Source: a virus. Taken from it: 35,788 bases of DNA. The notes below the pieces were generated by a model, which was given only the letters and a program-made list of their open reading frames with translations, was not told the DNA's origin and ran no database searches. This document shows, piece after piece, positions 9,232 to 21,989 of the stretch; positions within the stretch are counted from its first letter, which is position 1; every line of letters starts with the position of its first letter. The stretch spans positions 1 to 35,788 of IMG/VR virus record IMGVR_UViG_3300031539_000144; one strand, written 5' to 3'. Both the position numbers and the translations under genes were made by a program.

Positions 9232-9719
9232 AACGCAACCTCCTCGGTTCCAGATACTTTTACATAACGCTCATCAGCACCGAGAACACGATTATCCCAA
9301 TTCTCATCAGTGCTTTCGATCTTAACAAAAGAATGCCTTCTGTGTTCGTACTCTCTTATAGCTTGACGCGTATACTGAATCAGCCACTCGGCTACTTCCT
9401 TATCTTTGTCATGACTAATTAGTTCGATTAAATCGACATAATTATTGATCATGTGCTGAGCAGACAGGCACACTATATGCTCAATCATGATATGTGGGCT
9501 TCCTGATATATCAATCTTCTCGGCATCGCTAAGTACCTTTTCTTCTACGCGACCAAGATCATCAAGCATCTTTTTGACTTCCGCCGGAATATAACAGGTA
9601 TAGTATTCATAGGCGAACTTGCCTGCTTGATACAAGAAAGAAAAAAACGCAATCGACAAAACCAAGCAGCTAAACCTCAATATAAATAAATCTAAATTAC
9701 CGAATACTGCCTCAATCAT
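9228..9719 (-). CDS. Hypothetical membrane-anchored protein
   Basis: 163 aa with an N-terminal hydrophobic segment (LFILRFSCLVLSIAFFSFLY). It is coupled to both neighbours. Confidence 0.65.
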   Translation of the reverse strand: MIEAVFGNLDLFILRFSCLVLSIAFFSFLYQAGKFAYEYYTCYIPAEVKKMLDDLGRVEEKVLSDAEKIDISGSPHIMIEHIVCLSAQHMINNYVDLIELISHDKDKEVAEWLIQYTRQAIREYEHRRHSFVKIESTDENWDNRVLGADERYVKVSGTEEVAL

Positions 9720-9919
9720 GATTTCGCTCTCGCACGGTTAAGCTTACGAATAAAACGCTCAGTTATCTTCCAGCTATCTTTATTCTCAAACGATCTGCCA
9801 AAAAAAACAAATGTCCGACCGTATGTGCTTAGAGCGATATGCGGTTTCAGTAATAATCTCGATCCCTCTATCACACCATTGTTAAATTCAGACCTGCTTT
9901 GTGAATCATGTATCATCAT
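9716..9919 (-). CDS. Hypothetical protein
   Basis: 67-aa track ORF coupled to its neighbours. Confidence 0.55.
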   Translation of the reverse strand: MMIHDSQSRSEFNNGVIEGSRLLLKPHIALSTYGRTFVFFGRSFENKDSWKITERFIRKLNRARAKS

Positions 9920-10226
9920 CTACCCCAATATTTTTATCTCTTATCTTGCGCCTAATATTATCCATACCAACATTAAACTTACTCCTATCTTCGAGACTCA
10001 ACTTATCAAGTCTAGACACAAAACCATCATCGCCTTCAGCAGAAATACGCTTTGCGAATGAAATAAATCTATCTCTGTTCTGCGGATAACAAAGAAAGCC
10101 TTTCTCATCACTGTCACCTAATATTCGTTTAATTCCGTAGTACGCCAGAGCAGCGCAAAAAAAGGCAAGCATCGACGCGGCAAAAACTGTTACTACTATT
10201 GCGAATACTGCTGTGTAATCAATCAT
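9906..10226 (-). CDS. Hypothetical membrane-anchored protein
   Basis: 106 aa with an N-terminal TM segment (AVFAIVVTVFAASMLAFFCAALAYYGI). Confidence 0.6.
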   Translation of the reverse strand: MIDYTAVFAIVVTVFAASMLAFFCAALAYYGIKRILGDSDEKGFLCYPQNRDRFISFAKRISAEGDDGFVSRLDKLSLEDRSKFNVGMDNIRRKIRDKNIGVDDDT

Positions 10227-10428
10227 TGCCGATATTACTAATCACGTGATCAATAAACTGCATTTTCAGCTCTGCCATTTGCCATTTAGCTTCCGCCATA
10301 GCATCCATAAGCTTGGTTTTTTGCTCAACCTTACCGTAATTAAACTGCATAGTTATGTTCTCTAGGCGCCTATCGATTATATCCATAACATCGCCGACAC
10401 TTACCTTTTCATCCCTTATAATCATCAC
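10219..10428 (-). CDS. Hypothetical protein
   Basis: 69-aa track ORF with overlaps on both sides. Confidence 0.6.
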   Translation of the reverse strand: MMIIRDEKVSVGDVMDIIDRRLENITMQFNYGKVEQKTKLMDAMAEAKWQMAELKMQFIDHVISNIGND

Positions 10429-10706
10429 TCACCACCTACTACGTCGTCATTGGGTTTACGTATAAAGCGCGCTATCTCTCGAACGTCGGCCTTAATCTCT
10501 TTTATGCTGTCAGTCTGCCAGCTATCGACCACACCTTTTGATTGAAAGCTGGATTGAATCTCCGCGATTATTTCTTGATTCTTTTCAGCCTGAGCGTTAG
10601 TTCTTGTCAGCTCACTATCACGAATAGCTATATAGCTAATCGATCCAGTGAATGACAGCGCTACAACAATCCACTTGAGCGGTTCGAGCTTATGCCAATC
10701 AAACAT
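10425..10706 (-). CDS. Hypothetical membrane-anchored protein
   Basis: 93 aa with an N-terminal TM segment (LKWIVVALSFTGSISYIAI). Confidence 0.6.
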   Translation of the reverse strand: MFDWHKLEPLKWIVVALSFTGSISYIAIRDSELTRTNAQAEKNQEIIAEIQSSFQSKGVVDSWQTDSIKEIKADVREIARFIRKPNDDVVGGE

Positions 10707-10809
10707 TCATTATCACTCTAATAAAGTGGTCAGCAAAAGCCACGCCAAAAGGCATACTTGCTATGAAAATAATAATTCCTAACTTATAAGCTTTGGTTCG
10801 TAACGTCAT
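10699..10809 (-). CDS. Mini membrane protein (36 aa), absent from the ORF track
   Basis: GGGGGTGA lies 3 nt upstream of the ATG at 10809. Hand translation gives MTLRTKAYKLGIIIFIASMPFGVAFADHFIRVIMNV. Its stop overlaps the next gene's start. Confidence 0.5.
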   Translation of the reverse strand: MTLRTKAYKLGIIIFIASMPFGVAFADHFIRVIMNV

Positions 10810-10832
10810 AAATCACCCCCTATTTTGTTTGT

Positions 10833-11063
10833 TTATTGTACCAAATTACGAAAGTTTTCGCACCAATCTTCCCATGACGATTGTATTTTTCTGTCGTGAC
10901 AAATATCTGTAAACTCAGCACTCCACCAGAAAGCTTTTTGCTCGATACGCTTCAGCTTTTCATTCTCAGCCTTTAGGAGCTCATTCTCAGCTATCAGCTC
11001 ACGAATATTTGAATCATCTAAGCATGTGCTTGAGCCGTTTATTTCTAAGTTTAGCTTATCCAT
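10833..11063 (-). CDS. Hypothetical coiled-coil protein
   Basis: 76-aa track ORF with a heptad-like segment (IRELIAENELLKAENEKLKRIEQ). Confidence 0.55.
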   Translation of the reverse strand: MDKLNLEINGSSTCLDDSNIRELIAENELLKAENEKLKRIEQKAFWWSAEFTDICHDRKIQSSWEDWCENFRNLVQ

Positions 11064-11078
11064 CTATCTACTCCTCAA

Positions 11079-11273
11079 TTAATCCCAATCGGAAACGCGA
11101 ACAATAGACTCTACATGAGCCTTATTTAACAGCTTAATAATCTCTACCAATGGCTGGTAAATATCGGCAGATATAGATAGCGCTTGATCTTCGCTAAATC
11201 CATCCTCTTCTAGTGACTGACTCAACTCTAACGGTGTTAGCAATAAATCTATCTTCTCTTGTATATCACTCAC
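11079..11273 (-). CDS. Hypothetical acidic protein
   Basis: 64 aa with a GTG start and GGAGG 8 nt upstream. It is rich in Asp and Glu. Confidence 0.55.
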   Translation of the reverse strand: MSDIQEKIDLLLTPLELSQSLEEDGFSEDQALSISADIYQPLVEIIKLLNKAHVESIVRVSDWD

Positions 11274-11354
11274 TTAACTATCCTCCACTTGAAATATTCA
11301 CGCTCTACTCTACCGCCGTTTTTGTCTATGATTATGATTATCATTTGCATTCCC

Positions 11355-11498
11355 TCAGTAAGTTACTGTTATCGTTAAGCCGGCAGCAAACAGCCAGTAC
11401 AGCGCCTTTCGCCAATCTCCCTGCATTGCGTAAGGTACTGCCGCCATTACATCAATTATAATCAACAGCGTTGGCAGTGCCTTTGTGTACTTTTCCAT
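11355..11498 (-). CDS. Mini membrane protein (47 aa), absent from the ORF track
   Basis: GGGGAAGAG lies upstream of the ATG at 11498. Hand translation gives MEKYTKALPTLLIIIDVMAAVPYAMQGDWRKALYWLFAAGLTITVTY, with two hydrophobic segments. Confidence 0.5.
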   Translation of the reverse strand: MEKYTKALPTLLIIIDVMAAVPYAMQGDWRKALYWLFAAGLTITVTY

Positions 11499-11510
11499 CA
11501 CTCTTCCCCT

Positions 11511-11873
11511 TTAGTTTGCCCATGACTTATCGTCAAGCATCTGCTGCGTTGGAATATCTCGCGTACTCTCACCCTGAATGAGCCGCCCCTCTATTCGTGC
11601 CGCATTCTTTAGCGCCTCAAATTCTCCCGCAAGCGCATTTTTTGTATAGGCGATATTAATTCCCTTCCAGCCCTTTGTTGTAACAGTCCAATCTATTAGC
11701 TCTGTCGGCGTCATACCAACCTCAAAAGCTCTTAATGATTCATTCATAGCTTGATAAAAAGCCCTTGGTGTAAGCGGGCACTTCATGTTTATTCGATGAT
11801 CAATAAAACCCTTAGCCGCCTCAATGTCGATTTCTATATCTAATCCGTCTAGCTCGATGTTTTTATATTTCAC
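11511..11873 (-). CDS. Hypothetical protein
   Basis: 120-aa track ORF. The segment HRINMKCPLTPRAF...GWKGI vaguely recalls C-terminal domains of phage replication-associated proteins, but I cannot support a call. Confidence 0.6.
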   Translation of the reverse strand: MKYKNIELDGLDIEIDIEAAKGFIDHRINMKCPLTPRAFYQAMNESLRAFEVGMTPTELIDWTVTTKGWKGINIAYTKNALAGEFEALKNAARIEGRLIQGESTRDIPTQQMLDDKSWAN

Positions 11874-11889
11874 TTGTCGTACCTCTTAG

Positions 11890-12099
11890 CTATTTCATAT
11901 TACGCTTAATCGCTTTCGCCTTAGCTTCACGCTTTGCCTTCTTCGCATCGTGAGATTCATTCATTTCAAATTTACCGATAAAAGCATCCATTCGACGATT
12001 TAGCTCTTTGTTTGCCTGCTGCCCTAACACCTTCAACTCTTCCTCGTTACAGAAGTCTAGAAGCGCCCTAGAGCGCCCCCAGTATTCAGGCCTAAGCAT
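11890..12099 (-). CDS. Hypothetical Lys-rich protein
   Basis: The track ORF is 11890..12141. I prefer ATG 12099 (MLRPEYWG...), which overlaps the upstream stop region by 8 nt rather than 50 nt. Confidence 0.55.
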   Translation of the reverse strand: MLRPEYWGRSRALLDFCNEEELKVLGQQANKELNRRMDAFIGKFEMNESHDAKKAKREAKAKAIKRNMK

Positions 12100-12667
12100 T
12101 AAGCTTTTCCAGTTGATTATTTGCCTTAGCTGTAGCAACAACCATTTCGGCGAACTTATTCGCTACATTCTCGCGAATACCGGAATTAACCGCTTTTGTT
12201 ATCTGGTCATCAATATCCTTACTGAATCCTTTCATCTTCTCAGAAACTATCTCTTCTACCCGCTGACCTGTAAGATAGTTGATTAGTGTCATTTTCGCAT
12301 TATAGTTGTTGCTAAATGCCCCTCTCTCATCGACCATCTTTTCTAATGTATTATCAAATGTTCGCTTGATTAAATCCCTTATGTTCAGCGATTCTTTAGG
12401 GTCTCCCCACTTGTCAGTAACTGTGACCTCGTTCTCCAGCCAGTCATCAGCAAACGCTATTGCTTTTGATTCAATTGATGATCTTGCTTTAGATATAGCC
12501 TCATCAATTGCCGCATCTATTTTCTTTGATGCCTCTTTTTCAACCTTATCTAAGCACTGCTTGCTAATTGACGACCTTACGCCATTTATAATTTGATGCT
12601 TAACTTCTTCATCAATAGAGCCATCTTCTTCAATCCAATCGATATCTACAGTTATATTCAATTTCAT
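12092..12667 (-). CDS. Hypothetical protein (191 aa), first gene after the non-coding island
   Basis: Track ORF with AAGAGAG upstream of the ATG at 12667. It looks helical and charged, with no recognised motif. Confidence 0.7.
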   Translation of the reverse strand: MKLNITVDIDWIEEDGSIDEEVKHQIINGVRSSISKQCLDKVEKEASKKIDAAIDEAISKARSSIESKAIAFADDWLENEVTVTDKWGDPKESLNIRDLIKRTFDNTLEKMVDERGAFSNNYNAKMTLINYLTGQRVEEIVSEKMKGFSKDIDDQITKAVNSGIRENVANKFAEMVVATAKANNQLEKLNA

Positions 12668-13008
12668 AATATTTACTCTCTTAGTTAAATTAATAAGTTT
12701 TAGACAATAGGTTCCCCCTTTCTCCCTACTGGTAAGAATACAAGGCTTACTTATAATGCCTGCTTGTATACCATCAGCTTTATGGGAGTAGCACTCTCCA
12801 GTTAGTCGTCGGCAGTCAAAGGGAGACTGTATTCCATTTTTCCGAAAGCGCCGTATGAATTCAATCCGTGAATTACTTTGGTTGGCTGTAAATTTAAGGT
12901 TGCTGCTCAGTTAATGTCAGGCTGACCGGTTCGGTTTAGTTTTAAGTCGTGACCGTACGCGCATCTAATGGACTGCGTAGGAAGGGAATAGTGGATTATT
13001 AGAAAGGG

Positions 13009-13106
13009 CGCCTAGCAAGGGAATCGAACCCTTATAGCTTATCTTCTTGAACCATCGTTAATTGGAATCGAACCAAAAAGAATTACACTTTTACCAAAAT
13101 CTAGGC
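13009..13106 (-). other. tRNA-like element with two T-arm signatures (not a canonical tRNA)
   Basis: The minus strand carries GGTTCGATTCC twice (plus-strand ggaatcgaacc at 13020-13030 and 13064-13074). The 3' copy has a 5-bp T stem (AAGGG/CCCTT) followed by GCTAGGC, which pairs with GCCTAG at 13101-13106. The enclosed 98 nt cannot be folded into D and anticodon arms by hand. Confidence 0.4.
13063..13090 (+). promoter_or_regulatory. Candidate plus-strand promoter inside the non-coding island
   Basis: TTGGAA (13063-13068), a 16-nt spacer, then TACACT (13085-13090). It pairs with the plus-strand terminator at 13279-13312 to define a possible transcript of about 210 nt. Confidence 0.3.
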
Positions 13107-13108
13107 AC

Positions 13109-13196
13109 AAAAAAAGGCTATTTAATAACAAGCCAGTTGGTAAAGGCTGATCAGGAGTACGGTGAATCCGCGCCTCTGACCTGTTATTAAATAACC
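13109..13196 (-). terminator. Long structured hairpin plus U7 (terminator of a candidate small RNA)
   Basis: 12 perfect base pairs join 13119-13130 (tatttaataaca) and 13182-13193 (tgttattaaata). The stem extends to about 16 bp only in the minus-strand RNA, through G:U pairs. The interior forms two short helices, giving a three-way junction. Seven U residues follow on the minus strand (plus-strand A run 13109-13115). Confidence 0.5.
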
Positions 13197-13252
13197 CTTA
13201 CCGCACTTAAATCATTTCTAAAGACGTTACCACACGCCTTACTACATTTACT

Positions 13253-13280
13253 ATTTTACTATAACTGTATTACATTGCAA
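13253..13280 (-). promoter_or_regulatory. Candidate minus-strand promoter driving the structured RNA region
   Basis: TTGCAA (13280..13275), a 16-nt spacer, then TAAAAT (13258..13253). No ORF follows for about 590 nt. Confidence 0.45.
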
Positions 13281-13312
13281 GCCCTCTATTCGTTCGCAAG
13301 GGCTTTTTATTT
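13279..13312 (+). terminator. Plus-strand rho-independent terminator with no plus-strand gene upstream
   Basis: aagccct (13279-13285) pairs with agggctt (13299-13305) around a 13-nt loop, followed by TTTTTATTT on the plus strand only. It overlaps the stop codon of the 62-aa minus-strand ORF. Confidence 0.45.
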
Positions 13313-13495
13313 GGTTGAGACTCTATCAATCTCTTCGATAATTATTATCACTAGCCCGCACATGATAGCAATCAAAAGCCCCGTGCATAAAACTATAACT
13401 TTTCCCATCGCCATACCCATGATCGTTAAAATAATACCGCCGAAAGATTGCGCGCATATAAGTTTTAAGTTCTGTTTTTTTGTCCACTTTCTCAT
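13307..13495 (-). CDS. Small two-TM membrane protein
   Basis: 62 aa with two hydrophobic segments (FGGIILTIMGMAMGKVIVL and LLIAIMCGLVIIII). It lies downstream of the HTH gene in a two-gene unit. Confidence 0.6.
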   Translation of the reverse strand: MRKWTKKQNLKLICAQSFGGIILTIMGMAMGKVIVLCTGLLIAIMCGLVIIIIEEIDRVSTK

Positions 13496-13534
13496 AAATA
13501 CCTCTTCGTTGGTTAACCCTGTTAGCGCAGGGTT

Positions 13535-13750
13535 TTACTTTATCTCTTCGGTTTCACCAAGCTTTATAAACTCGCTCACCTTCATGTCAAGCTCTCCGCA
13601 AACAACCCTCAGCCTATCAAAGCTAATATTCTTTGTGTTGTTGCTGACAGCAGAAAGATAAGCGCTAGTAACACCAACTCGGCCAGATAGATCTCTTAGT
13701 GACATATCTTTATGTATCAACGCTATCTTTAGTGATTTTCCTATATTCAT
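13535..13750 (-). CDS. XRE/Cro-CI family helix-turn-helix regulator
   Basis: 71 aa. LKIALIHKDMSLRDLSGRVGVTSAYLSAVSNN is a textbook HTH_3 pattern. GAGGTG lies upstream of the ATG. It is the first gene after a terminator-promoter pair. Confidence 0.8.
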   Translation of the reverse strand: MNIGKSLKIALIHKDMSLRDLSGRVGVTSAYLSAVSNNTKNISFDRLRVVCGELDMKVSEFIKLGETEEIK

Positions 13751-13774
13751 CTTTCACACCTCAAGTTAGATTTA

Positions 13775-13803
13775 AATATATACCTATATTGGTTAATAAT
13801 CAA
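13775..13803 (-). promoter_or_regulatory. Sigma70-type promoter of the HTH / membrane-protein unit
   Basis: The minus strand reads TTGATT (13803..13798), a 17-nt spacer, then TATATT (13780..13775). The 12-mer ATAAATAGTATT abuts the -35 box, and the same 12-mer abuts the -35 box of the promoter at 15215-15242. Confidence 0.55.
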
Positions 13804-13824
13804 TACTATTTATTATATTTAGGC

Positions 13825-13849
13825 AAATAAAAGCCCAAGTTAATGGGCT
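13825..13849 (-). terminator. Rho-independent terminator
   Basis: The minus strand reads AGCCCA-TTAACT-TGGGCT (13849..13832) followed by TTTATTTG. Confidence 0.65.
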
Positions 13850-14020
13850 ATTACCTTGGCTCGGAAAAATGCGCGTAACCGTCGAAAGTGCTCGCATGAA
13901 TCCGATATCTTTAACTATAAGCCCTTGCAGCGTTTATCAATGTTTTTACACTTAGCTACTACTGTTCGGGCCAGAGCTCATTATACTAAATATGCCGGTC
14001 TTTCACCAGCGCGCTATCAC

Positions 14021-14200
14021 TTAAATCTTTCTTCTATACTGTCTGTGTGACGGCAGAAGAGGATCAGGTGCCGGCTTCCCAATGCATGTTGCGGGAACCC
14101 ATCTCGATTTATCCTTCCATCCGTCTCGGCAAGAATCAACCTCATCACCTTCACGTATGATTTCGCCGTGCTTTAATCCTCTATAAACCTCTTCTTTCAT
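14021..14200 (-). CDS. Hypothetical protein (59 aa)
   Basis: The track ORF is 14021..14248. I place the start at ATG 14200 (MKEEVYRG...) because AAGAGG lies 6 nt upstream. Confidence 0.6.
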   Translation of the reverse strand: MKEEVYRGLKHGEIIREGDEVDSCRDGWKDKSRWVPATCIGKPAPDPLLPSHRQYRRKI

Positions 14201-14285
14201 AAATACCTCTTTAGTTAATATTAATACTCTTACACCCAAAAACCCCACTTAAGGGGCGTTTAGATTGGTATGCTCCATAATGGAA

Positions 14286-14507
14286 CTAGGCACCTTCAGC
14301 GTTTTGAAAGCTATTCTTCATTTCTGCCCACTGTATCGCGTCGTCAACATGGATAAATCTAGCTTGGTTGTGCTTTTCGTTCGGGTTTTCTTTGTTGTAT
14401 GTTGTAAAAACAGGGTAGCCAAACAGCGGTTCGGTTTGGTTGGCTGCTATATCTTCGTGCCCTCGCTCGCCGAAATTACCTACAAAATAAAAAGGCTTGT
14501 TGCTCAC
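14286..14507 (-). CDS. Hypothetical protein (73 aa)
   Basis: The track ORF is 14286..14549. I prefer GTG 14507 because GGAGG lies 6 nt upstream (VSNKPFYFVGNFG...). Confidence 0.55.
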   Translation of the reverse strand: MSNKPFYFVGNFGERGHEDIAANQTEPLFGYPVFTTYNKENPNEKHNQARFIHVDDAIQWAEMKNSFQNAEGA

Positions 14508-14509
14508 TT

Positions 14510-14629
14510 CTAACCTCCACACTGATGATAAATTGATATTCCCGCACACATCACACTACAGCGCTCTATCAGTAGTACCGCGGCTATAGCGTAGAATGCG
14601 ATTAGTGAGTATTTAATTGTTTTGCTCAT
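14510..14629 (-). CDS. Mini membrane protein (39 aa), absent from the ORF track
   Basis: GAGGTG lies upstream of the ATG at 14629. Hand translation gives MSKTIKYSLIAFYAIAAVLLIERCSVMCAGISIYHQCGG. Confidence 0.5.
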   Translation of the reverse strand: MSKTIKYSLIAFYAIAAVLLIERCSVMCAGISIYHQCGG

Positions 14630-14637
14630 GCTTCACC

Positions 14638-14838
14638 TCAGAACGGAACAATGTTTAATTGCGTCGATACTCTACAGAACTCACCATCTTCGTCGTTATA
14701 ATATTTGACTAACTGGAGCGTCCCGTCTTCACCATGCTCAATCGAAAGATTATAATCCTTGCAGAGCTTTTCAATCCTTCCGGCGTGAATCTCAACGTTT
14801 TCCTGCTCAACTTTTGCGTAGCTCATTTCAGTATTCAT
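14638..14838 (-). CDS. Hypothetical protein
   Basis: 66-aa track ORF whose start overlaps the upstream stop by 4 nt. Confidence 0.6.
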   Translation of the reverse strand: MNTEMSYAKVEQENVEIHAGRIEKLCKDYNLSIEHGEDGTLQLVKYYNDEDGEFCRVSTQLNIVPF

Positions 14839-15050
14839 AAATCCTCCGGATAGTCTTCATTAATTGCCGCGTTGTCAGCTCTCTCCGCTGCTTTGCGACG
14901 CCTTTCTGTTAGTGTTGGGTTAACGCCATAGGTTCTAGCCTTCTGTTCGTTACAGCGCGCGCATGTGCCCTTGTCGTTGATCTTGATAGTGCAGCCGCAT
15001 TTGCATGGCAGGCCGAAGTAAGTGCCGTCGTTGGATTTGAAGTGGCCCAT
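14835..15050 (-). CDS. Hypothetical zinc-ribbon-like protein
   Basis: 71 aa with the Cys pairs CKCGC and CARC. Confidence 0.6.
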   Translation of the reverse strand: MGHFKSNDGTYFGLPCKCGCTIKINDKGTCARCNEQKARTYGVNPTLTERRRKAAERADNAAINEDYPEDL

Positions 15051-15053
15051 TTG

Positions 15054-15188
15054 CTAAGCCCCGCTAGAATCAAAGAACTGGCGCAATATCATTCTAACCG
15101 CCATGGTGTAATTTCCATCACAATTAGCATCAGCGTAATCCTGTATTTTTTTATCTAAAACCGAATCGAACTTTATTAGCTTTTTCAT
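15054..15188 (-). CDS. Putative ribbon-helix-helix (Arc/CopG-like) protein, 44 aa, absent from the ORF track
   Basis: AGAGGGAAG lies upstream of the ATG at 15188. Hand translation gives MKKLIKFDSVLDKKIQDYADANCDGNYTMAVRMILRQFFDSSGA, a strand-helix-helix layout. It is the first gene after a promoter. Confidence 0.5.
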   Translation of the reverse strand: MKKLIKFDSVLDKKIQDYADANCDGNYTMAVRMILRQFFDSSGA

Positions 15189-15214
15189 ATACTTCCCTCT
15201 GTTTGCATGAGTTA

Positions 15215-15242
15215 AGTATACACTCAATATATATTATGTAAA
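15215..15242 (-). promoter_or_regulatory. Sigma70-type promoter of a six-gene mini-ORF unit
   Basis: The minus strand reads TTTACA (15242..15237), a 16-nt spacer, then TATACT (15220..15215). The 12-mer ATAAATAGTATT (plus-strand aatactatttat, 15241-15252) abuts the -35 box. Confidence 0.6.
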
Positions 15243-15274
15243 TACTATTTATATATTTATTTTATAGCAGGCAT

Positions 15275-15296
15275 AAAAAAGCCCCCATACGGAGGC
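15275..15296 (-). terminator. Rho-independent terminator after the methyltransferase locus
   Basis: The minus strand reads GCCTCC-GTAT-GGGGGC (15296..15281) followed by TTTTTT. Confidence 0.7.
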
Positions 15297-15414
15297 AGTG
15301 CTACATGGCAGGCTTTGGCAAACCTGTTTTGTGTTTCTTATTGTTCGTCTAGTGTAGCACAATCAATTATTGCGCGGCCTATGATTTCTGGTATTTGAGG
15401 CACGACGGAATTTC

Positions 15415-15930
15415 CTAGTTGCTTACAAGCGTGTGCCATGCCGGGAACCCCATCAACAATGAGCTGAACTCCGGATTGCTTTTCCCAGTCCTGCCAACTG
15501 CCATTACCGACCAATGGGCCAGCATTAATTGATGCCCACCTTTTTTCCGCTTCTCCACCATTTGAGGAGATATTTCGTAGTGCCACTTTAGGTCCATTGC
15601 CATTGGGGTAGGCAATAATCCACACCCTATCTCTGTGATGGGGGGCGCCAATGTAGCTAGCTGATATACAGTGCCATTCTGCATCGTACCCGATCTGGGC
15701 CAAGTCATAGAGAAATCTTGCGAACCATCTCCCTTTGTCTCCACTAAGCAAGCCTGTGACGTTCTCAAAAATTGCGTATCTTGGCAGACACTCGCTAATA
15801 ACCCTAAGCATCTCGGTGTATAAATTTGTTCTTTCGCCATCAACTCCGACTTTAGTTCCTGCCTGGCTAACGTCTTGACAGGGGAAACCTCCGCAAATAA
15901 CGTCAACTGTTCCTCTGTATTGCTTTCCAT
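15415..15930 (-). CDS. 171-codon ORF in the +1 frame of the methyltransferase gene (candidate overprinted gene)
   Basis: ATG 15930 has GAGGA (15941..15937) 6 nt upstream, and the frame is open for 516 nt on the same strand. The product carries the ordered motifs LFAEVSPVKT, LRTSQACL, FSMTWPRSGTMQNG, GLLPTPMAMD and NPEFSSLLMGFPAWHT, which do not look like frameshift noise. Confidence 0.45.
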   Translation of the reverse strand: MESNTEEQLTLFAEVSPVKTLARQELKSELMAKEQIYTPRCLGLLASVCQDTQFLRTSQACLVETKGDGSQDFSMTWPRSGTMQNGTVYQLATLAPPITEIGCGLLPTPMAMDLKWHYEISPQMVEKRKKGGHQLMLAHWSVMAVGRTGKSNPEFSSLLMGFPAWHTLVSN

Positions 15931-16058
15931 CCAGCGTCCTCACATCTTCGTGAATTGGCACGTCAGGCCAGTGTTTTTTTAATACTTTCTGTGCGTGTTT
16001 ATCGAATTCACAAAAAGCTACCGTCTCCATTCCTGCGCGCTCAAGACCTAAACTAAAG

Positions 16059-16095
16059 CCGCCAACTAAATGCCAGAGAACAAATCCAGCACTTT
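16059..16095 (-). repeat. Motif-I coding segment, downstream copy (contains the 5-nt insertion)
   Basis: AAAGTGCTGGATTTGTTCTCTGGCATT-TAGTT-GGCGG matches 16691-16722 at 30 of 32 positions once TAGTT is excluded. Confidence 0.9.
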
Positions 16096-16130
16096 CATGC
16101 GGTTGCTCTCTGACTTTATTTTTCCTCCCG

Positions 16131-16634
16131 TCATAGCTTTTCTCTCATGTGCTTTATGTTTAATATTTTTTTGTCATAAATCCAATGGCAGCTTCGACAC
16201 ATGGCTGCATAGTCATCCAAGTCTTGATAGTTCCCTGTAAGGTTTGCATAGTCGTAATGTTTTGATTCTTCAGTGCCGCATTGTGTGCATTTGGTCGGCT
16301 TTCCATATTTAGCATATAAACGCCTATGAAAAGCTGCGTATCCAGCCTCGCCTCCTTTCCAAGAGCTATTATTTTCCCCAAATTGATCCCGCTTTGCTGC
16401 CACTCTTGCAGGTATTCCGTGTCGCTTCATGGCTTTAAAAATAGACTTTTGAGATACCCCAAGTTTTTCTCCAATTTCAACTTGGCTCATTCCCCCGATA
16501 TACATCTCATTAATCTTATCTATATCTATCGGCGGAGCCTGATAATCTCCCTTGCATTTTAATGAGCAGAATCTCGGATTTTTGCTATAAGACTTAAAAT
16601 CCACGCCGCACTGAGTGCACTTGTATATTGTCAT
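16131..16634 (-). CDS. HNH-family homing endonuclease (Zn ribbon + HTH + HNH-like C-terminus)
   Basis: 167 aa. It has an N-terminal CTQCG...CSLKC, a central HTH (MSQVEIGEKLGVSQKSIFKAMKRHGI) and a C-terminal WKGG...GYAAFHRRL...CTQCG...NL...CRSCH, the layout of phage HNH homing nucleases. AGGA lies 8 nt upstream of the ATG. Confidence 0.65.
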   Translation of the reverse strand: MTIYKCTQCGVDFKSYSKNPRFCSLKCKGDYQAPPIDIDKINEMYIGGMSQVEIGEKLGVSQKSIFKAMKRHGIPARVAAKRDQFGENNSSWKGGEAGYAAFHRRLYAKYGKPTKCTQCGTEESKHYDYANLTGNYQDLDDYAAMCRSCHWIYDKKILNIKHMREKL

Positions 16635-16734
16635 GCATTGATCCTAGCAATAAAAACAATAATATACATCTATTTAGTGGCATTGTAAGCCCGCCAATAC
16701 CAGAGAACAAATCCAACACTTTTAAAGCGCTCAT
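16594..16734 (-). CDS. 46-codon ORF: methyltransferase motif I (MSALKVLDLFSGIGG) fused to out-of-frame cassette sequence
   Basis: ATG 16734 overlaps the stop of the 103-aa gene (ATGA), the position expected for the original methyltransferase start. After GIGG the frame runs through the cassette promoter and the 5' end of the HNH ORF to a TAA at 16594. Confidence 0.4.
   Translation of the reverse strand: MSALKVLDLFSGIGGLTMPLNRCILLFLLLGSMHDNIQVHSVRRGF
16661..16688 (-). promoter_or_regulatory. Candidate promoter of the HNH endonuclease gene
   Basis: The minus strand reads TTACAA (16688..16683), a 16-nt spacer, then TATATT (16666..16661), immediately after the upstream motif-I copy. Confidence 0.45.
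16691..16722 (-). repeat. Motif-I coding segment, upstream copy
   Basis: AAAGTGTTGGATTTGTTCTCTGGTATTGGCGG. See 16059-16095. Confidence 0.9.
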
Positions 16735-17042
16735 AACTCCGCCGCTATATTTGCTTTAATCCATTGAAACACTTCTTTGCGGGTGCCCAATCCTGAATAC
16801 GCCCCGTCGTATTTGATGTAGTAATATTTATCAGCTCGCACTTGGTCGACTTTCATAACTACAAAACCCGCCGGCGCTTTCTGCGATCCAAACTTGGCAA
16901 TAGTGTCAGGATTTCTGACGAGAAGCTTATCAAGCAATACCTGTTTTTCGTCTACTGCGCCCCAGGTAACCAACTTCAACTTAGGCTTTTTCATTTGCTC
17001 GCGCTCAAGCTCGCGATGGATGTCGCTGAATTCGTCTCTCAT
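16731..17042 (-). CDS. Hypothetical protein
   Basis: 103-aa track ORF coupled to both neighbours. Confidence 0.65.
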   Translation of the reverse strand: MRDEFSDIHRELEREQMKKPKLKLVTWGAVDEKQVLLDKLLVRNPDTIAKFGSQKAPAGFVVMKVDQVRADKYYYIKYDGAYSGLGTRKEVFQWIKANIAAEL

Positions 17043-17254
17043 GTGTTATCCACCAGCGGCTCATCGACACGCAGCGCAATATCTATGCCATTAAATATAT
17101 GCCAGACCTGATAATCTACTTGTGACAAATTGTTTCTTAGTTGTAGCTCAATATCACGAATCGATTTCAGCAAGCTTTCAGTTTCGCTTGCATCAAGATC
17201 ATATGAAAATAACTGAGCCTTTTTCTTTCTGTGTAAATTCTTTAGATCATCCAC
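17039..17254 (-). CDS. Hypothetical protein
   Basis: 71-aa track ORF with a GTG start. Confidence 0.55.
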   Translation of the reverse strand: MDDLKNLHRKKKAQLFSYDLDASETESLLKSIRDIELQLRNNLSQVDYQVWHIFNGIDIALRVDEPLVDNT

Positions 17255-17316
17255 CTGTCACCACCATTTCTGCTAAAATTATTAGAATGCACGGAATTAT
17301 TCCGAGCATGTAAAAT

Positions 17317-17505
17317 TTAATTATATTCATTTATGTATTTTTTCAATTCTGGGCACCAGTTGCATTTTTCGCATCGATGCATTTCGTTTTTACATTTGCA
17401 CAATCTCATTCGATTGCATTTTTTACACTCAGTATAGTCGCCAATAAATGACCAGCTATCCGTATGCAATCTAGAATTTTCTTGATCGTCCGCAAGATTA
17501 ATCAT
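17317..17505 (-). CDS. Hypothetical Cys-rich (zinc-finger-like) protein
   Basis: 62 aa with CKKC...CKCK...CEKCNWC. Confidence 0.6.
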   Translation of the reverse strand: MINLADDQENSRLHTDSWSFIGDYTECKKCNRMRLCKCKNEMHRCEKCNWCPELKKYINEYN

Positions 17506-17768
17506 AATTCCTCGATGTACTCATCAACAACTATCCGCGCACCCATTTCGTCAAGTATGCGCTGCGTTGGTCGTGCTTTATTTCGTGCTACTGCGTAAAC
17601 AGTTGATTCCAGCTCGCCTATTTTCTCAGCATAGATAGCGTATTTAATATGCTCTCGAGTACCTGCCACACGCCCTATATGAGCGTTAAACGACACTCCG
17701 AAATTAGCTATCGGCATTCGCTTGTTTTCGTAAGTGCTTAATATGCGCTGTAATATGTTCATACGCAC
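17502..17768 (-). CDS. Hypothetical protein, possibly DNA-binding
   Basis: 88 aa. The segment AEKIGELESTVYAVARNK looks HTH-like, but this is weak. Confidence 0.55.
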   Translation of the reverse strand: MRMNILQRILSTYENKRMPIANFGVSFNAHIGRVAGTREHIKYAIYAEKIGELESTVYAVARNKARPTQRILDEMGARIVVDEYIEEL

Positions 17769-17853
17769 ATTTTATGCCATTTGCTATGAAAAATACATGC
17801 CGCTCATCGACACGACTAAAATTAATGCAATTAAGAATAGCCCTTCTTTCGTG

Positions 17854-18045
17854 CTAAGTGTTACTTCGTAATGCTCGCTGCTCTTTGTCTCGCTGCTTTG
17901 TCGCGTTTCGTAGTTCACGTTTTATTTCTCCACATTTGATATTAAAAATATACTTTTCAGCTTCGGTGTATAGCTTGCTTCGTAGTTTTGACTGCTCGAG
18001 CGCCAGCAAAGATCGTAGGTTTTCAATGCTCACAATCACCACCAA
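17854..18045 (-). CDS. Hypothetical protein
   Basis: 63-aa track ORF, basic and helical. Confidence 0.5.
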   Translation of the reverse strand: MVVIVSIENLRSLLALEQSKLRSKLYTEAEKYIFNIKCGEIKRELRNATKQRDKEQRALRSNT

Positions 18046-18253
18046 CCATCAAATTTTTCTGCTTTATCAGAGCATCAAGATATTCAAACTCATCAAACTT
18101 ATCTGATATTTTACTTGGCACTTCAACAAATACTCCCTTTCTGTATGAGTGAAACTTAATATCGTTAAACTCGTGATCATCATAATCCGCACTAACAACG
18201 ATTGCGCTTGATCTGTACTTTATCTCTGTAATAACTTCAAAGCTCATAATCAT
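18023..18253 (-). CDS. Hypothetical protein
   Basis: 76-aa track ORF. Confidence 0.55.
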   Translation of the reverse strand: MIMSFEVITEIKYRSSAIVVSADYDDHEFNDIKFHSYRKGVFVEVPSKISDKFDEFEYLDALIKQKNLMVGGDCEH

Positions 18254-18477
18254 ATCCCCAAGTACTTGTTAACTGATTGAATGAAGTCGGCCGGCGTTAA
18301 AGTGCTAACAAACTCGCCGCCCTCGTTGTCGCGCAGATACTCAAGCGTTTCAACGATGTTCAGTGTGTCGATCTGGCTCATCTTGAATGCTAGCTCTGTG
18401 CGTGTGCTGTACTTGCCCACATAATAAAGCGTGTGGTCCGCTGCGTTGCTGTCTGCAATTGTTATTAGTTGGCTCAC
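18250..18477 (-). CDS. Hypothetical protein
   Basis: 75-aa track ORF with 4-nt overlaps on both neighbours. Confidence 0.6.
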   Translation of the reverse strand: MSQLITIADSNAADHTLYYVGKYSTRTELAFKMSQIDTLNIVETLEYLRDNEGGEFVSTLTPADFIQSVNKYLGI

Positions 18478-18680
18478 GCTACGCCCTCCTCATCGAAATA
18501 ATCGATCGTTATATCAAGTGCTGCGCATATCTCAGCAAGCTGTCTGTCACTCGGAATACGTCTGTTAGATTCAATTTCCATCAGCTGACCAAGCGACACA
18601 CTCGGCAATTTGCTACTAAGCTTGACTTGATTGAGGTGCTTTTCTTTGCGATAAAACGCGATTAATTCTGATGTGTTCAT
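18474..18680 (-). CDS. XRE-family helix-turn-helix regulator
   Basis: 68 aa. LIAFYRKEKHLNQVKLSSKLPSVSLGQLMEIESNRRIP fits the HTH_3 layout. Confidence 0.7.
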   Translation of the reverse strand: MNTSELIAFYRKEKHLNQVKLSSKLPSVSLGQLMEIESNRRIPSDRQLAEICAALDITIDYFDEEGVA

Positions 18681-19237
18681 AGTGATTCCTCAATTTTTAG
18701 CAGCTCGAAAGGGATTGTTTCTCGGCAAATATTTGCGCACTTGATTTGCGTCTCTTTTCTAGCAGCAGCATAAGCAGCATTTGATGCAGAAGAATAAGCA
18801 GCAGCAGAGTCAGCATAAGCAGCAGAAGCATAAGCATAAGCAGCAGCAGCATAAGCAGCAGCATAAGCATAAGCATCAGCAGAGGCAGCATAAGCAGAGG
18901 CAGCATAAGCAGTAGAAGCATCAGCAGAAGAGGCAGGATAAGCAGCAGCAGAGGCAGCATCTAACTCCTCTCTTGTTATTTCGCCACTAGAGAATCTTTC
19001 AGCAGCGACAAGAGCCGCTATGCTTCTGTCGTCCTTCATCAAATGCTCAACAAGTCTAGCGCATCGAACTTTAGCAAGGGTTAAGACCTTTACGTCAACA
19101 CCCTGTCTTTTTGCGATCCACAGCATCCAATCTCCACGCTCACAATTATTCCATGCGTCTAATGCTGATTGATTTCCGATGTATTCGATACAATCATCGC
19201 ACGCGCCTAATTTTTTCAAAAATTGTTGTAGCTTCAT
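18677..19237 (-). CDS. Hypothetical protein with a Cys/Trp-containing N-domain and a ~65-residue Ala/Tyr/Ser low-complexity tract
   Basis: 186 aa. Residues ~93-159 read AASAAAYPASSADASTAYAASAYAASADAYAYAAAYAAAAYAYASAAYADSAAAYSSASNAAYAAA. Confidence 0.7.
   Translation of the reverse strand: MKLQQFLKKLGACDDCIEYIGNQSALDAWNNCERGDWMLWIAKRQGVDVKVLTLAKVRCARLVEHLMKDDRSIAALVAAERFSSGEITREELDAASAAAYPASSADASTAYAASAYAASADAYAYAAAYAAAAYAYASAAYADSAAAYSSASNAAYAAARKETQIKCANICRETIPFELLKIEESL
18761..18961 (-). repeat. Imperfect GCA/GCATAA-type microsatellite-like tract (coding)
   Basis: The plus strand is a run of gcagca, gcataa and gcagaa units, for example gcataagcataagcagcagcagcataagcagcagcataagcataagc. It encodes the Ala/Tyr/Ser tract. 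Confidence 0.85.
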
Positions 19238-19449
19238 AGTGATTCCGCTTTGTCTGTTAGTCGTAGTGATCGAGCAGCGCCAGCTTTTTTAGTGATGTAT
19301 CCGTCGCGCTCTAGTCGTTTAATTTGTTCTGCAACAGCGTTAGGGTATACGCCCAACTCGCTTGCTATGTCACCCATCGATGGGCTGTATCCGTTTTCGG
19401 CTATGTACTTTTTTATAACCGCTAATGTCTTCAATTGCTGCTCTGTCAT
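19234..19449 (-). CDS. Winged-helix DNA-binding protein resembling the LexA N-terminal domain (no peptidase domain)
   Basis: 71 aa. LKTLAVIKKYIAENGYSPSMGDIASELGVYPNAVAEQIKRLERDGYITK follows the LexA/MarR-type wHTH pattern. It is the first gene after a promoter. Confidence 0.65.
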   Translation of the reverse strand: MTEQQLKTLAVIKKYIAENGYSPSMGDIASELGVYPNAVAEQIKRLERDGYITKKAGAARSLRLTDKAESL

Positions 19450-19478
19450 TTCGTTGCCTTGTTTGTGTGTACAGTGTC

Positions 19479-19506
19479 AGTATATACAATACGCTCATTC
19501 ATGCAA
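19479..19506 (-). promoter_or_regulatory. Sigma70-type promoter of the early regulatory gene run
   Basis: The minus strand reads TTGCAT (19506..19501), a 16-nt spacer, then TATACT (19484..19479). Confidence 0.55.
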
Positions 19507-19552
19507 GCTGTTTATCTATACAAGTTAGCTATAGATTCACCGATTTTTATGC

Positions 19553-19576
19553 AAAAAAAAGACCCCGCTAGGAGTC
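19553..19576 (-). terminator. Rho-independent terminator ending the lysis unit
   Basis: The minus strand reads GACTCC-TAGC-GGGGTC (19576..19561) followed by T8. Confidence 0.75.
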
Positions 19577-19604
19577 TAAAATGGTGCGTATTTCGTAAAG
19601 CTCT

Positions 19605-20027
19605 TTAAGCCACAGCCTGCGTAGGTTCTTTTGCTTGCTCTTCTTCCGTATCCTCTCCTTCCTCGACGAGTAAGCCATAACCCGCCACCTCTCTGTATTC
19701 CATAATATCGCTGTCTGTAATACTGCCGTTGATATGTTTAGCGTGCAGCGTGTTAAATGACTCCTTGATTTTGCGAAAGGCCTCTTTATGCTCCAAGTCA
19801 TAAGCAGTAATCAAGGCGATCTTTTCTTTTTGATCTTCTAGCTGAGATTCAACCTCAAGAATTTCATTATCAATGTCGTCAACGTTCTTTGTCTCCAAAG
19901 CAACATCCTTCTGATGCTGCTCAAGCCGTGATACCGCAATCTTCCTGCGGTCTTCTTTGTGATTCAAGCTTGCTTGAAGAGTGTTGATTGACTGATGAAT
20001 CTTTTCTAGCATTGTTTCTACTGACAT
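19605..20027 (-). CDS. Hypothetical coiled-coil protein with an acidic C-terminus
   Basis: 140-aa track ORF with no TM segment, so it is not a classical i-spanin. Confidence 0.65.
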   Translation of the reverse strand: MSVETMLEKIHQSINTLQASLNHKEDRRKIAVSRLEQHQKDVALETKNVDDIDNEILEVESQLEDQKEKIALITAYDLEHKEAFRKIKESFNTLHAKHINGSITDSDIMEYREVAGYGLLVEEGEDTEEEQAKEPTQAVA

Positions 20028-20039
20028 AATAATTTCTCT

Positions 20040-20183
20040 CTAATTTAGTTGTGCGAATTTTGTGTCCGCTGAAAAAGTTGGGTATTGAATTGGTTTTGAA
20101 TCAGGCTTGGTGCGCGTAGAGTGATCAACTGTGCAACAGCCCATTATGAAAATTACGTAAAATATTGGGGCGAGGTTTTTCAT
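20040..20183 (-). CDS. Lipoprotein (47 aa), an o-spanin candidate; absent from the ORF track
   Basis: ATG 20183 overlaps the holin stop (ATGA). Hand translation gives MKNLAPIFYVIFIMGCCTVDH..., a signal peptide plus the lipobox I-M-G-C. It sits right after the endolysin and holin genes. Confidence 0.6.
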   Translation of the reverse strand: MKNLAPIFYVIFIMGCCTVDHSTRTKPDSKPIQYPTFSADTKFAQLN

Positions 20184-20590
20184 TTCTTATTCACCCGTGC
20201 AGACCAGGCTTTGACGATGCCTTCGCCAGCACCGCCAAGGAAGTAAAACGCTAGAATCCATGCCACAGGATCACCGAGCGTTAAATTGTTCATGCTGGCC
20301 ACCTCTTTAAGCTGAGCAACGCGAAAATCAAACAATTCACCGTTTGAAGGAAACCAAATCATAGCCAACCATGTGCCAGCAATAAGAACATGGATAAAAA
20401 CGAATGGCGGAACAACAATCGCCACAGCTAAGCGCTGAACCTTTTTGAATGGTTCATACAGCTTCAGAAACATCATTTTAGCTTTAGATTTTTCCTCTGT
20501 CGTCTCCCACATTGCGTCGGCAGTATCCATTAAACCGCCAACAACTTTATCGGAACCGAAAATACTTCCCCAGAATCCAGCCATTACCAT
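20180..20590 (-). CDS. Holin-like membrane protein (three predicted TM segments)
   Basis: 136 aa with a charged N-terminal part followed by the hydrophobic segments LAVAIVVPPFVFIHVLIAGTWLAMIWF and VAWILAFYFLGGAG. It overlaps the endolysin stop. Confidence 0.55.
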   Translation of the reverse strand: MVMAGFWGSIFGSDKVVGGLMDTADAMWETTEEKSKAKMMFLKLYEPFKKVQRLAVAIVVPPFVFIHVLIAGTWLAMIWFPSNGELFDFRVAQLKEVASMNNLTLGDPVAWILAFYFLGGAGEGIVKAWSARVNKK

Positions 20591-20934
20591 CTACCTCTAT
20601 TAGTGCGTGTGTCGATATGCGTGAAAGTTGCGTATGCTTTCATTCCGTAATCGTCAGGGAAGCGTGTATTTAGGTATTCGTAAACCTCTGAAGCTGGCAC
20701 ATTGCGAACTACGATGTCAGCGGCACGACCGTAAAGATGCTGACTATTAGGTTTGCCGCCTTCATTTTCATTATGCTTTGCGCACCTGCACCCTGAGTTA
20801 ATTATAATCGGCTCATTGAACCATGCGCGCAATTCCTCAAGCACGTCAAGAAGCTCGGCATCGACAGTATCGAAACCGCATCCGCACTTACACTCGAATT
20901 CTTCACGCGTAAAATGTTTTGCTGGAAATGTCAT
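20584..20934 (-). CDS. Endolysin, zinc D-Ala-D-Ala carboxypeptidase-type peptidase (M15 family)
   Basis: 116 aa. FTREEFECKCGCG...INSGCRCAKHN...SQHLYGRAADI...THIDTR shows the H..D..H zinc-ligand layout of small phage M15 peptidases. Confidence 0.8.
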   Translation of the reverse strand: MTFPAKHFTREEFECKCGCGFDTVDAELLDVLEELRAWFNEPIIINSGCRCAKHNENEGGKPNSQHLYGRAADIVVRNVPASEVYEYLNTRFPDDYGMKAYATFTHIDTRTNRGRW

Positions 20935-21149
20935 ACTTCCCCCAGGTCATATAGAACAGTAACTACTTTTCGACGAGTGACGCCATCGACATCGACATCA
21001 ATAACATAAACGTCATGCTCAGCTTTCTTTGTGTACTGTGCGCTAATAATAACGCGAGTTCTCCCCACTATCTTGCTAATGCGATCGAACACATTAGTTC
21101 GTGCAATAGGCAAGAAGCTATCAATGTATTCTTTGAATGTTTGAATCAT
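20931..21149 (-). CDS. Hypothetical protein, first gene of the leftward unit
   Basis: 72-aa track ORF that overlaps the endolysin start by 4 nt. Confidence 0.6.
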   Translation of the reverse strand: MIQTFKEYIDSFLPIARTNVFDRISKIVGRTRVIISAQYTKKAEHDVYVIDVDVDGVTRRKVVTVLYDLGEV

Positions 21150-21231
21150 GTTTAATCCCTGCTTTAATTACATTCAAATTGTACGATAAATGCTAAATGA
21201 ATACAATATAAATTATTACGTAACAAATGCT

Positions 21232-21260
21232 TGCCAAGATAGTTATATTATATTACTATT
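21232..21260 (+). promoter_or_regulatory. Sigma70-type promoter of the rightward recombination operon
   Basis: TTGCCA (21232-21237), a 17-nt spacer, then TACTAT (21255-21260). It lies in the AT-rich divergent region 21150-21296, where leftward promoter candidates also exist. Confidence 0.55.
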
Positions 21261-21296
21261 ACCACATCGAAACGATTTATCAAAAGGAAGGCAGAC

Positions 21297-21449
21297 ATGA
21301 ATTCATATACTCCAATTGAAGACGCAAACATCGCAGCATGTAATCAACAGCTTGCAGAAATGGACGAGGGCGCTAAGTGGTTGATAGCTAAAGAGATTAC
21401 CCTTTCTATTCTAGTTGTGACCGCTTTTATTATTGGTGCAGCAATATGA
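21297..21449 (+). CDS. Mini protein with a C-terminal TM anchor (50 aa), absent from the ORF track
   Basis: AAGGAAGG lies upstream of the ATG at 21297. Hand translation gives MNSYTPIEDANIAACNQQLAEMDEGAKWLIAKEITLSILVVTAFIIGAAI. Confidence 0.55.
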   Translation: MNSYTPIEDANIAACNQQLAEMDEGAKWLIAKEITLSILVVTAFIIGAAI

Positions 21450-21507
21450 TCAACGCATTAACGCAGGCCGATTTGATGAAACTATTGTCGGGTGGGAAAA
21501 GCCTAAG

Positions 21508-21717
21508 ATGGGTGAGAGCATGAAAAACTTCGGCAACGCCATTACACTAATGCGATCGGTTGCTAACCTTTGGTTTGGTGGCGATATTGAAGCGGCATTC
21601 AAAGCAATATCAAGCGTGTGCGGTTACACAGCTACGTATTTACGTGCCATTGCAAATCGTTGGTTTCATGGCTCAATACGCAAGACAATCAACGCGATTA
21701 AAAGGAGGATGAAGTGA
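21508..21717 (+). CDS. Hypothetical protein with an internal ~21-aa duplication
   Basis: The track ORF is 21433..21717 with a non-ATG start. In-frame ATGs occur at 21508 and 21520, so the start is uncertain. The repeat is LMRSVANLWFGGDIEAAFKAI versus YLRAIANRWFHGSIRKTINAI. Confidence 0.5.
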   Translation: MGESMKNFGNAITLMRSVANLWFGGDIEAAFKAISSVCGYTATYLRAIANRWFHGSIRKTINAIKRRMK

Positions 21718-21989
21718 GCAAGTTTTTTACAGCAACAGCGCCATCAGATTTCGACGAGCTAATGTTTCTATTTTGGTGCGAGGATGAAAATCTAGATTCG
21801 GCATTATCGTATCGTGACGAATCTTTTTTAAATCTGAGCAAAAAAATATCTGGCTCACGAATAGATTTTAAGCATGATATCAATGCAGATAATTCGATTA
21901 ATTTTGATTATGCATTTGCATCTTGTGACGATAGTTTTTTAATACCGGTGTCGATATTAAATGACATTAAAATGATAGGGGTAGAATGA
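21714..21989 (+). CDS. Hypothetical acidic protein upstream of recT
   Basis: 91 aa with a GTG start and AGGAGG 6 nt upstream. Confidence 0.6.
   Translation: MSKFFTATAPSDFDELMFLFWCEDENLDSALSYRDESFLNLSKKISGSRIDFKHDINADNSINFDYAFASCDDSFLIPVSILNDIKMIGVE

Follow-up and report, generated by a model that had tools for sequence, protein, structure and literature searches.

The analysed stretch of viral DNA (IMG/VR record IMGVR_UViG_3300031539_000144, positions 1..35788, hereafter the window) codes for a major head protein, a head-tail adaptor (connector), TerL, an internal virion protein with an endolysin domain, tail proteins and RecT, and looks like a segment or the genome of a podovirus-type phage. 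Among its genes is an ORF for a C5-cytosine methyltransferase, here called alpha, which matches PF00145 (5e-42, the match ending at profile position 169) and is covered from end to end (residues 1-226) by phrog_363 (1e-62). One and the same frame holds motif IV with the catalytic cysteine (PCQ), motif VI (ENV), motif VIII (RxR) and motif X (GNxV), with a short stretch of about 60 aa between motifs VIII and X. Motif I (FxGxG, AdoMet binding) is absent from the alpha polypeptide of the window but present in relatives such as the locus L004, whose intact 251-aa alpha is 74% identical to that of the window. Megablast of the window against 50,697 phage records (INPHARED) gave no match, and E. coli genomes gave no DNA-level match to the window gene; since nucleotide relatives were lacking, relatives were gathered by protein-guided searches.

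A second ORF, beta, is open within alpha in another frame (Table 1). The coordinates, the ATG and the spacing of the GAGGA in front of it, the motifs of alpha and all +1-frame motifs listed in an earlier note on this DNA were confirmed in the sequence. The TAG of beta overlaps the alpha Leu-Gly codons directly before motif X, and a stop one codon before motif X represents the plurality among 82 homologous loci, in which the stop ranges from -1 to +30 codons around this motif. The beta product is matched by phrog_1008, which is labelled 'DNA methyltransferase' (7.6e-17), and is 72% identical to the beta product of L004 (P0001). A Shine-Dalgarno-like core precedes the first beta ATG in 33 of 53 loci, compared with 18.6 expected (z 5.3). 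The TAT codon that creates an ATG at the IY|DD column was not significantly enriched (21 vs 17, P 0.06), because lineages use different starts. Sequence searches of Pfam and PDB returned no match for the beta product, and phmmer of its mycobacteriophage Corndog counterpart gp6 against PDB gave no usable match. AlphaFold models of beta alone reached a pLDDT of 49 with 26 sequences and of 60 with 109 sequences, and Foldseek found no match to them in PDB. Poor models of this kind would be compatible with a subunit that folds on its partner, but they carry no structural conclusion.

Table 1. Features of the methylase locus in the window, in the order of reading on the minus strand
Feature	Position	Strand	Remarks
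Upstream copy of the alpha start (MSALKVLDLFSGIGG, motif I)	16691..16734	minus	ORF 16594..16734 (46 aa); PF00145 positions 1-20; alignment
HNH homing-endonuclease-like ORF, 167 aa, inserted in the alpha 5' end	16131..16634	minus	phrog_8446 HNH endonuclease, 1e-19; Pfam: HTH matches only
Degenerate original alpha 5' end	16031..16098	minus	Sequence; three-way alignment with the intact L004 gene
5-nt insertion TAGTT	16068..16064	minus	In-frame stop and frameshift before GGFSLGLERAG
alpha (large-subunit) ORF	16030..15338	minus	230 aa; translation; starts at an internal Met (METVAF...)
GAGGA, Shine-Dalgarno-like	15941..15937	minus	6-nt spacer to the beta ATG (15930..15928)
beta (small-subunit) ORF	15930..15415	minus	171 codons / 516 nt; +1 frame of alpha; wholly inside 16030..15338
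Motif IV GGFPCQDVSQAG	15892..15875	minus	alpha frame
Motif VI ENV	15766..15758	minus	alpha frame
Conserved beta core TWPRSGTMQNG...LLPTP	15604..15705	minus	Overprinted on alpha motifs VII-VIII (GYDAEW...RDRVWIIAYP); nearly invariant beta columns
Motif VIII PHHRDRVW	15643..15620	minus	alpha frame
beta NPEFSSLLMGFPAWHT, motif IX read in the +1 frame	15430..15477	minus	Overlaps alpha QSGVQLIVDGVPGMAH
beta stop codon TAG	15417..15415	minus	
Motif X (GNSVVPQ; LGNSVVPQ with the preceding Leu)	15415..15395	minus	alpha frame

The +1 ORF of the window is not a product of chance. Openness was assessed in 82 genes (80 homologous IMG/VR loci picked by the methylase frame only, the window and other fetched loci with a complete methylase ORF) with a G+C content of 0.42 to 0.68, and synonymous-codon shuffles that kept the methylase protein and the codon usage of each gene served as null. 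Between motifs IV and X, the +1 frame of the window contains a single stop, the terminator of beta, compared with a mean of 4.05 in the shuffles, none out of 100 of which was as low, while its +2 frame contains 15. At most one +1-frame stop was present in 74 of the 82 genes over the same span, and 32 had none. Averaged over all 82 genes, the +1 frame had 0.89 stops as compared with 4.16 in the shuffles, and the +2 frame had 9.9 as compared with 9.0. In E. coli dcm, the corresponding span carries nine +1-frame stops.

Conservation of the +1 product was measured in 67 non-redundant genes as the mean pairwise identity of the +1 translation in an alignment of the methylase proteins, again in comparison to synonymous shuffles. 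Upstream of the beta ORF, this identity was 0.193 and not different from the shuffles (0.187, z 1.2), but it rose to 0.385 (vs 0.255, z 75) over the overlap with motifs IV-VIII and to 0.492 (vs 0.192, z 65) in the C-terminal block, before falling to 0.276 (vs 0.249, z 6.5) past the usual beta stop. In the columns of the beta core TWPRSGTMQNG...LLPTP, identities of 0.57-0.94 were observed, compared with 0.16-0.29 in the shuffles. The +2 frame is no independent control for conservation, because it shares the wobble positions of alpha, and the flanks of the beta ORF were used instead; with these as internal control, neither shared ancestry nor codon bias can explain the excess of +1 identity.

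The wobble positions of alpha gave a matching picture. Outside the overlap, their diversity was 0.60-0.70, and for the most part it stayed at 0.25-0.57 inside, with the exception of the hypervariable columns of the linker between motifs VIII and X (about 0.7) and of two early blocks (0.67-0.69). In the block GRVADGVP, which reads EWLMGFP in the +1 frame, diversity at the alpha wobble position (0.25) was even lower than at codon position 1 (0.45), indicating that the +1 frame dominates there. Between the window and L004, differences at alpha positions 1/2/3 amounted to 0.09/0.03/0.36 before the beta start, 0.21/0.10/0.26 over motifs IV-VIII, 0.29/0.20/0.145 over the linker and the part with motif IX, and 0.23/0.09/0.64 past the beta stop. 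In 159 pairs of genes, wobble differences were 0.577 in the N-terminus, 0.390 in the overlap and 0.556 in the tail. In phages, bacteria and archaea alike, purifying selection acts on beta. The proposal of the earlier note that both frames read like real proteins was thus borne out as genuine same-strand dual coding, by stop depletion as well as by conservation relative to shuffles. Comparisons that it had suggested agree with this: L004, a close relative, keeps the +1 frame, the beta ATG and the GAGGA, and the wobble positions of the methylase frame are suppressed in their variation over the overlap in the diversity values, in the pair with L004 and in the 159 pairs.

These data also bear on the possibility that the +1 ORF is nothing but a shadow of the methylase frame, in which conserved alpha codons happen to avoid +1 stops and to give similar +1 peptides, and no beta protein is made. 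Part of the +1 conservation does follow from the constraint on alpha, since for example FPCQD forces S/F-P-V/A-K/R-T in the +1 frame, and the shuffle null itself gives only about four stops. However, stop depletion and +1 conservation lie far above the nulls and are confined to the beta ORF, and at motif IX the wobble position of alpha is more conserved than its position 1. In addition, the +1 frame is closed in those relatives whose motif IX lies in frame 0 (see below), and a characterized homologous architecture requires beta for function (PMC2836561). We therefore regard a mere shadow as extremely improbable.

The C-terminal block of beta is, judged by sequence comparison, motif IX of the methylase. 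Its family consensus is LNPTWVEWLMGFPxGWT, and the window reads NPxFxxLLMGFPxW, departing from the consensus by SS for VE and by AWH for GWT. Two IMG/VR loci with alpha ORFs of 351 and 342 aa (L084 and L086) code for single-chain enzymes that contain RLNPDWVEWLMGYPISWTDGGSRMQRLMALGNSVVP in frame 0 immediately before motif X; their +1 frames are closed by nine and seven stops, respectively, and the in-frame motif IX shares 60-83% identity with the +1 products of other loci and with the family consensus. In both loci, about 130 aa of unrelated, Cys-rich variable sequence precede the LNPDWVEWLMGYP motif. A further line of evidence is Corndog gp6, in which the beta homologue is followed in frame by motif X. 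When the beta profile was compared with E. coli Dcm by hhalign, the best segment was RLTPRECARLMGF, which is motif IX, although the match was weak (E 0.22) and serves as a pointer beside the stronger evidence from L084 and L086. The likeness between LMGFP..W.T in the +1 frame and the element preceding motif X in canonical enzymes, which the earlier note had treated as mimicry, accordingly reflects relatedness, the +1 element being motif IX itself. In the window, alpha lacks motif IX (and also motif I), and beta has it.

Such a division of motifs is known. In the literature, M.EcoHK31I from E. coli HK31, which recognizes YGGCCR (Lee, Kam and Shaw, 1995), is described as a C5-methyltransferase of two polypeptides, of which alpha contains motifs I-VIII and X, while beta contains motif IX and is encoded entirely inside alpha in another frame, with its own start plus alternative internal starts (PMC2836561; PMC3404938). 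Silent removal of the beta starts abolished methylation in vivo, which was restored by beta supplied from a second plasmid, and when alpha and beta were encoded as separate genes, both were required for methylation (PMC2836561). In solved structures of C5-methylases, motifs I-VIII and X build the large domain, and the target-recognition domain (TRD) and motif IX the small domain (PMC3404938). We consider it very likely that the locus codes for a heterodimeric C5-cytosine DNA methyltransferase of the M.EcoHK31I type. According to this model, alpha would provide the large catalytic domain with the AdoMet-binding and catalytic motifs I-VIII, followed by a short spacer and motif X. Beta would be translated in the +1 frame of the same mRNA from its own Shine-Dalgarno sequence and ATG. 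The resulting separate polypeptide would bring in motif IX and probably also target recognition, through its TWPRSGMMxNG / LLPTPxAxD core and its variable WPTP modules, and both chains would have to associate for DNA methylation. Points that weigh against the model are the poor AlphaFold models of beta alone, the lack of structural or Pfam matches to it, the published placement of the TRD in the M.EcoHK31I alpha, the departures of the window motif IX from the consensus and the broken alpha.

The nested layout of alpha and beta is the same in M.EcoHK31I and in the window; the likeness was drawn from the published description of M.EcoHK31I, and by analogy the alpha and beta chains of the window may be expected to behave like those of M.EcoHK31I. 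The two loci differ in that M.EcoHK31I is part of a restriction-modification system, while the gene in the window lies among small phage ORFs, with no restriction enzyme gene identified adjoining it, and in that alpha of the window, unlike that of M.EcoHK31I, is broken. The overlapping gene is genuine but not new, as its alpha/beta architecture was first described in 1995 for M.EcoHK31I. A reading of the overlap as a new phenomenon is not supported in view of the published design (PMC2836561; PMC3404938).

A related layout is found in M.AquI (alpha/beta, CYCGRG), in which the small subunit contains motifs IX-X (PMC3404938). In the mycobacteriophage Corndog (locus L087, 1041..1986), gp7 and gp6 are both annotated as 'DNA methyltransferase' and overlap by 209 nt, with gp6 in the +1 frame. 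Corndog gp7 comprises motifs I-VIII and stops after motif VIII, and gp6 reads TWPTSGSMRNG...LLPTPVAAD...NPAFAEWMMGWPDGWV...IGNGVCPQQA, so that motifs IX and X follow in one frame. By sequence, gp6 is a clear homologue of the window beta, and Corndog has the M.AquI-like variant of the same beta family. About 30 Corndog-like phages share the gp7/gp6 overlap. In contrast to M.AquI and Corndog, where alpha ends after motif VIII and the small subunit carries motifs IX and X, motif X of the window is back in the alpha frame, and beta, which stops just before motif X, is therefore wholly nested; the window does not have the M.AquI-type layout. Single-chain enzymes (E. coli Dcm, L084 and L086) have the same catalytic motifs, and those of L084 and L086 share the motif IX sequence of beta, but their motif IX, flanked by the TRD and motif X, is read in frame 0, with the +1 frame closed (the stops given above), and the N-terminal two thirds of beta have no counterpart in them.

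In principle, the two frames could also yield one chain, if ribosomes left the alpha frame by a +1 shift past motif VIII, read the TRD and motif IX, and returned by a -1 shift for motif X. The pieces in this order would recreate the canonical succession of motifs I-VIII, TRD, IX and X, and a few database proteins are indeed alpha/beta chimeras (P0022, P0024 and P0065). Such recoding is nevertheless very unlikely: selection on beta begins far ahead of motif VIII, some 10 codons before PCQ, beta has its own ATG with an enriched Shine-Dalgarno sequence, and the scatter of its stop from -1 to +30 codons around motif X leaves no fixed shift site. The one chimera for which the contig was read, P0024 (locus L006, 2835..3768), comes from a contig with 2x coverage and a 1-nt indel, and the M.EcoHK31I subunits were both needed when made from two separate genes (PMC2836561). 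The three chimeras should not be taken as evidence for recoding. Of the alternatives raised in the earlier note, an overprinted gene or a relic of frame switching or recoding, the former is supported and the latter is not.

In M.EcoHK31I, the TRD has been assigned to alpha (PMC2836561; PMC3404938). Contrary to this assignment, we suggest that beta may supply specificity in the present family. The stretch between motifs VIII and X of the window alpha is short (about 60 aa) and poorly conserved (residue identity about 0.2) and resembles a spacer, whereas beta is conserved and modular; this stretch grows only when beta gains WPTPxAxD modules (L005, P0030); and in the clade of the window its substitution pattern fits the codon phase of beta. 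In the beta proteins P0030, P0117, P0173 and P0043 (370-460 aa), up to about ten tandem (L/M)WPTPxAxD modules lie between the core and motif IX, and the alpha 'linker' lengthens in step with these modules, for instance in L005 with its 361-aa alpha. A TRD-bearing beta may consist of a conserved core (SPAKTS, SWRTSQ, TWPRSGMMRNG, LLPTP) that shares its nucleotides with the catalytic motifs, together with motif IX and between one and about ten WPTPxAxD modules that can be swapped. The wider proposal that beta is the target-recognition subunit, that the 'variable region' of alpha is only a spacer that has to stay open and that, among long overlapping genes on one strand, the pair is one of the largest families known from prokaryotes and their viruses is tentative, and we rate its chances slightly below even.

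The beta family is very large and poorly annotated. At E <= 1e-3, a profile of the +1 products matched at least 28,870 representative clusters, with 15,242 remaining at E <= 1e-10, and the family clusters (50% identity) originate from many bacterial phyla, some archaeal MAGs and phages. Most database entries are unnamed or labelled 'hypothetical protein', which is also what the named beta entries are mostly called. In a Pfam scan of ten long beta members, nothing was detected except PF00145 in the alpha/beta chimera P0065. The small phage proteins travelling with methylases that the earlier note had likened to the product turn out to be gene calls of the same +1 frame at the same kind of locus. 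When 80 loci from bacterial and archaeal genomes were picked by the +1 profile alone and screened by HMM searches of stop-to-stop ORFs, all 80 contained a full-length methylase ORF and 79 had beta in its +1 frame, the sole exception being a frameshifted assembly. Nesting of beta in a different frame of alpha was found at 79 of 80 genome loci and at about 74 of 82 viral loci. In a tblastn search of phage genomes, the 171-aa product likewise hit annotated cytosine methylase genes, and in Sulfitobacter phiGT1, Che9d and Bacteroides BF1-TP2, for which the frames were checked, the match lies in the +1 frame of the methylase CDS. No homologue away from a methylase frame was thus encountered, all 80 loci being embedded; the earlier note would have counted this against a real gene, an interpretation that did not stand, and an obligate overlapping subunit predicts exactly this outcome.

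For the beta frame there is no Pfam model, and GenBank records annotate alpha only or, in one Vibrio phage that was checked, beta only, while gene callers applied to metagenomes often choose beta over alpha. Due to this patchy annotation, predictions of methylation in phages and prophages that start from annotations will overlook a subunit that is required. For the study of two proteins sharing one stretch of DNA, the family provides independent cases by the thousands, among which single-chain forms, nested forms as in EcoHK31I and staggered forms as in AquI and Corndog make up a natural series. In the Vibrio phage mentioned, 1.291.O (L003, 1823..2530), GenBank lists only beta (NVP1291O_11, 'hypothetical protein', 1827..2525), and the 235-aa methylase frame is absent from the annotation. 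The whole gene is dual-coding. The beta ATG follows 4 nt after the alpha ATG in this phage, and one ribosome-binding site could therefore serve both.

In the window, the 5' end of alpha is broken, as had been noticed in the earlier note, and the cause is an HNH insertion together with the TAGTT, with loss of motif I. Alpha is interrupted near codon 15, and about 30 nt of the gene start are duplicated on both sides of the HNH element. The upstream copy of the start is translationally coupled to the preceding gene (ATGA) and runs into the inserted element. The downstream copy (ATG at 16098) reads ATG AAA GTG CTG GAT TTG TTC TCT GGC ATT, followed by TAGTT and then by GGCGGCTTTAGT... (GGFSLGLERAG). 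From its sequence, the region 16031..16734 looks like the scar of a homing-endonuclease invasion that destroyed motif I. A group I intron was considered for the HNH insertion and rejected, since no Rfam match was obtained in 15000..17500 (E up to 1) and no splice-site logic would restore motif I. A hop or a -1 shift across the TAGTT was likewise rejected, as from reading of the sequence it would not restore FxGxG.

Lacking motif I in alpha, the methylase is probably inactive in this phage. The locus may therefore be a recently inactivated copy, in which beta is intact without a working alpha partner and nothing is methylated, a reading that we give an even chance and that is compatible with the M.EcoHK31I-type explanation for the family. 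The start of alpha at METVAF without motif I, the TAGTT stop, the HNH ORF separating the start copies and the lack of a matching intron model are in line with inactivation, whereas about 690 nt in which both frames are free of stops and frameshifts, the retention of PCQ, ENV, RDR and GNSVV in alpha and the preservation of the invariant family residues in beta argue against it. Both frames being intact downstream of the break, either the damage is recent or expression is rescued in some way that we did not see. The 516-nt dual-coding stretch would thus be explained as part of a two-subunit methylase, probably dead here after a homing endonuclease landed in the gene.

Mobile elements seem to target the methylase gene repeatedly, with L083 and L074 as further cases. 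In L083, the beta ORF runs beyond motif IX into a Cys/His-rich, HNH-like tail (ERHHPDY...CPPCH; weak Pfam matches), through which the alpha frame is open as well and repeats its EPxVGRVAHGVP block. In L074, motifs IX and X are separated by an insertion of about 150 codons. Another beta protein, P0137 (395 aa), carries an insert of about 130 aa with a LAGLIDADG-like motif (Pfam LAGLIDADG_1, at an E of 0.045 only), located between SWKTS and a second TSQ-like site (RWQTNQ), upstream of FSETWPRSG, a site that corresponds to the position of the alpha ENV motif.
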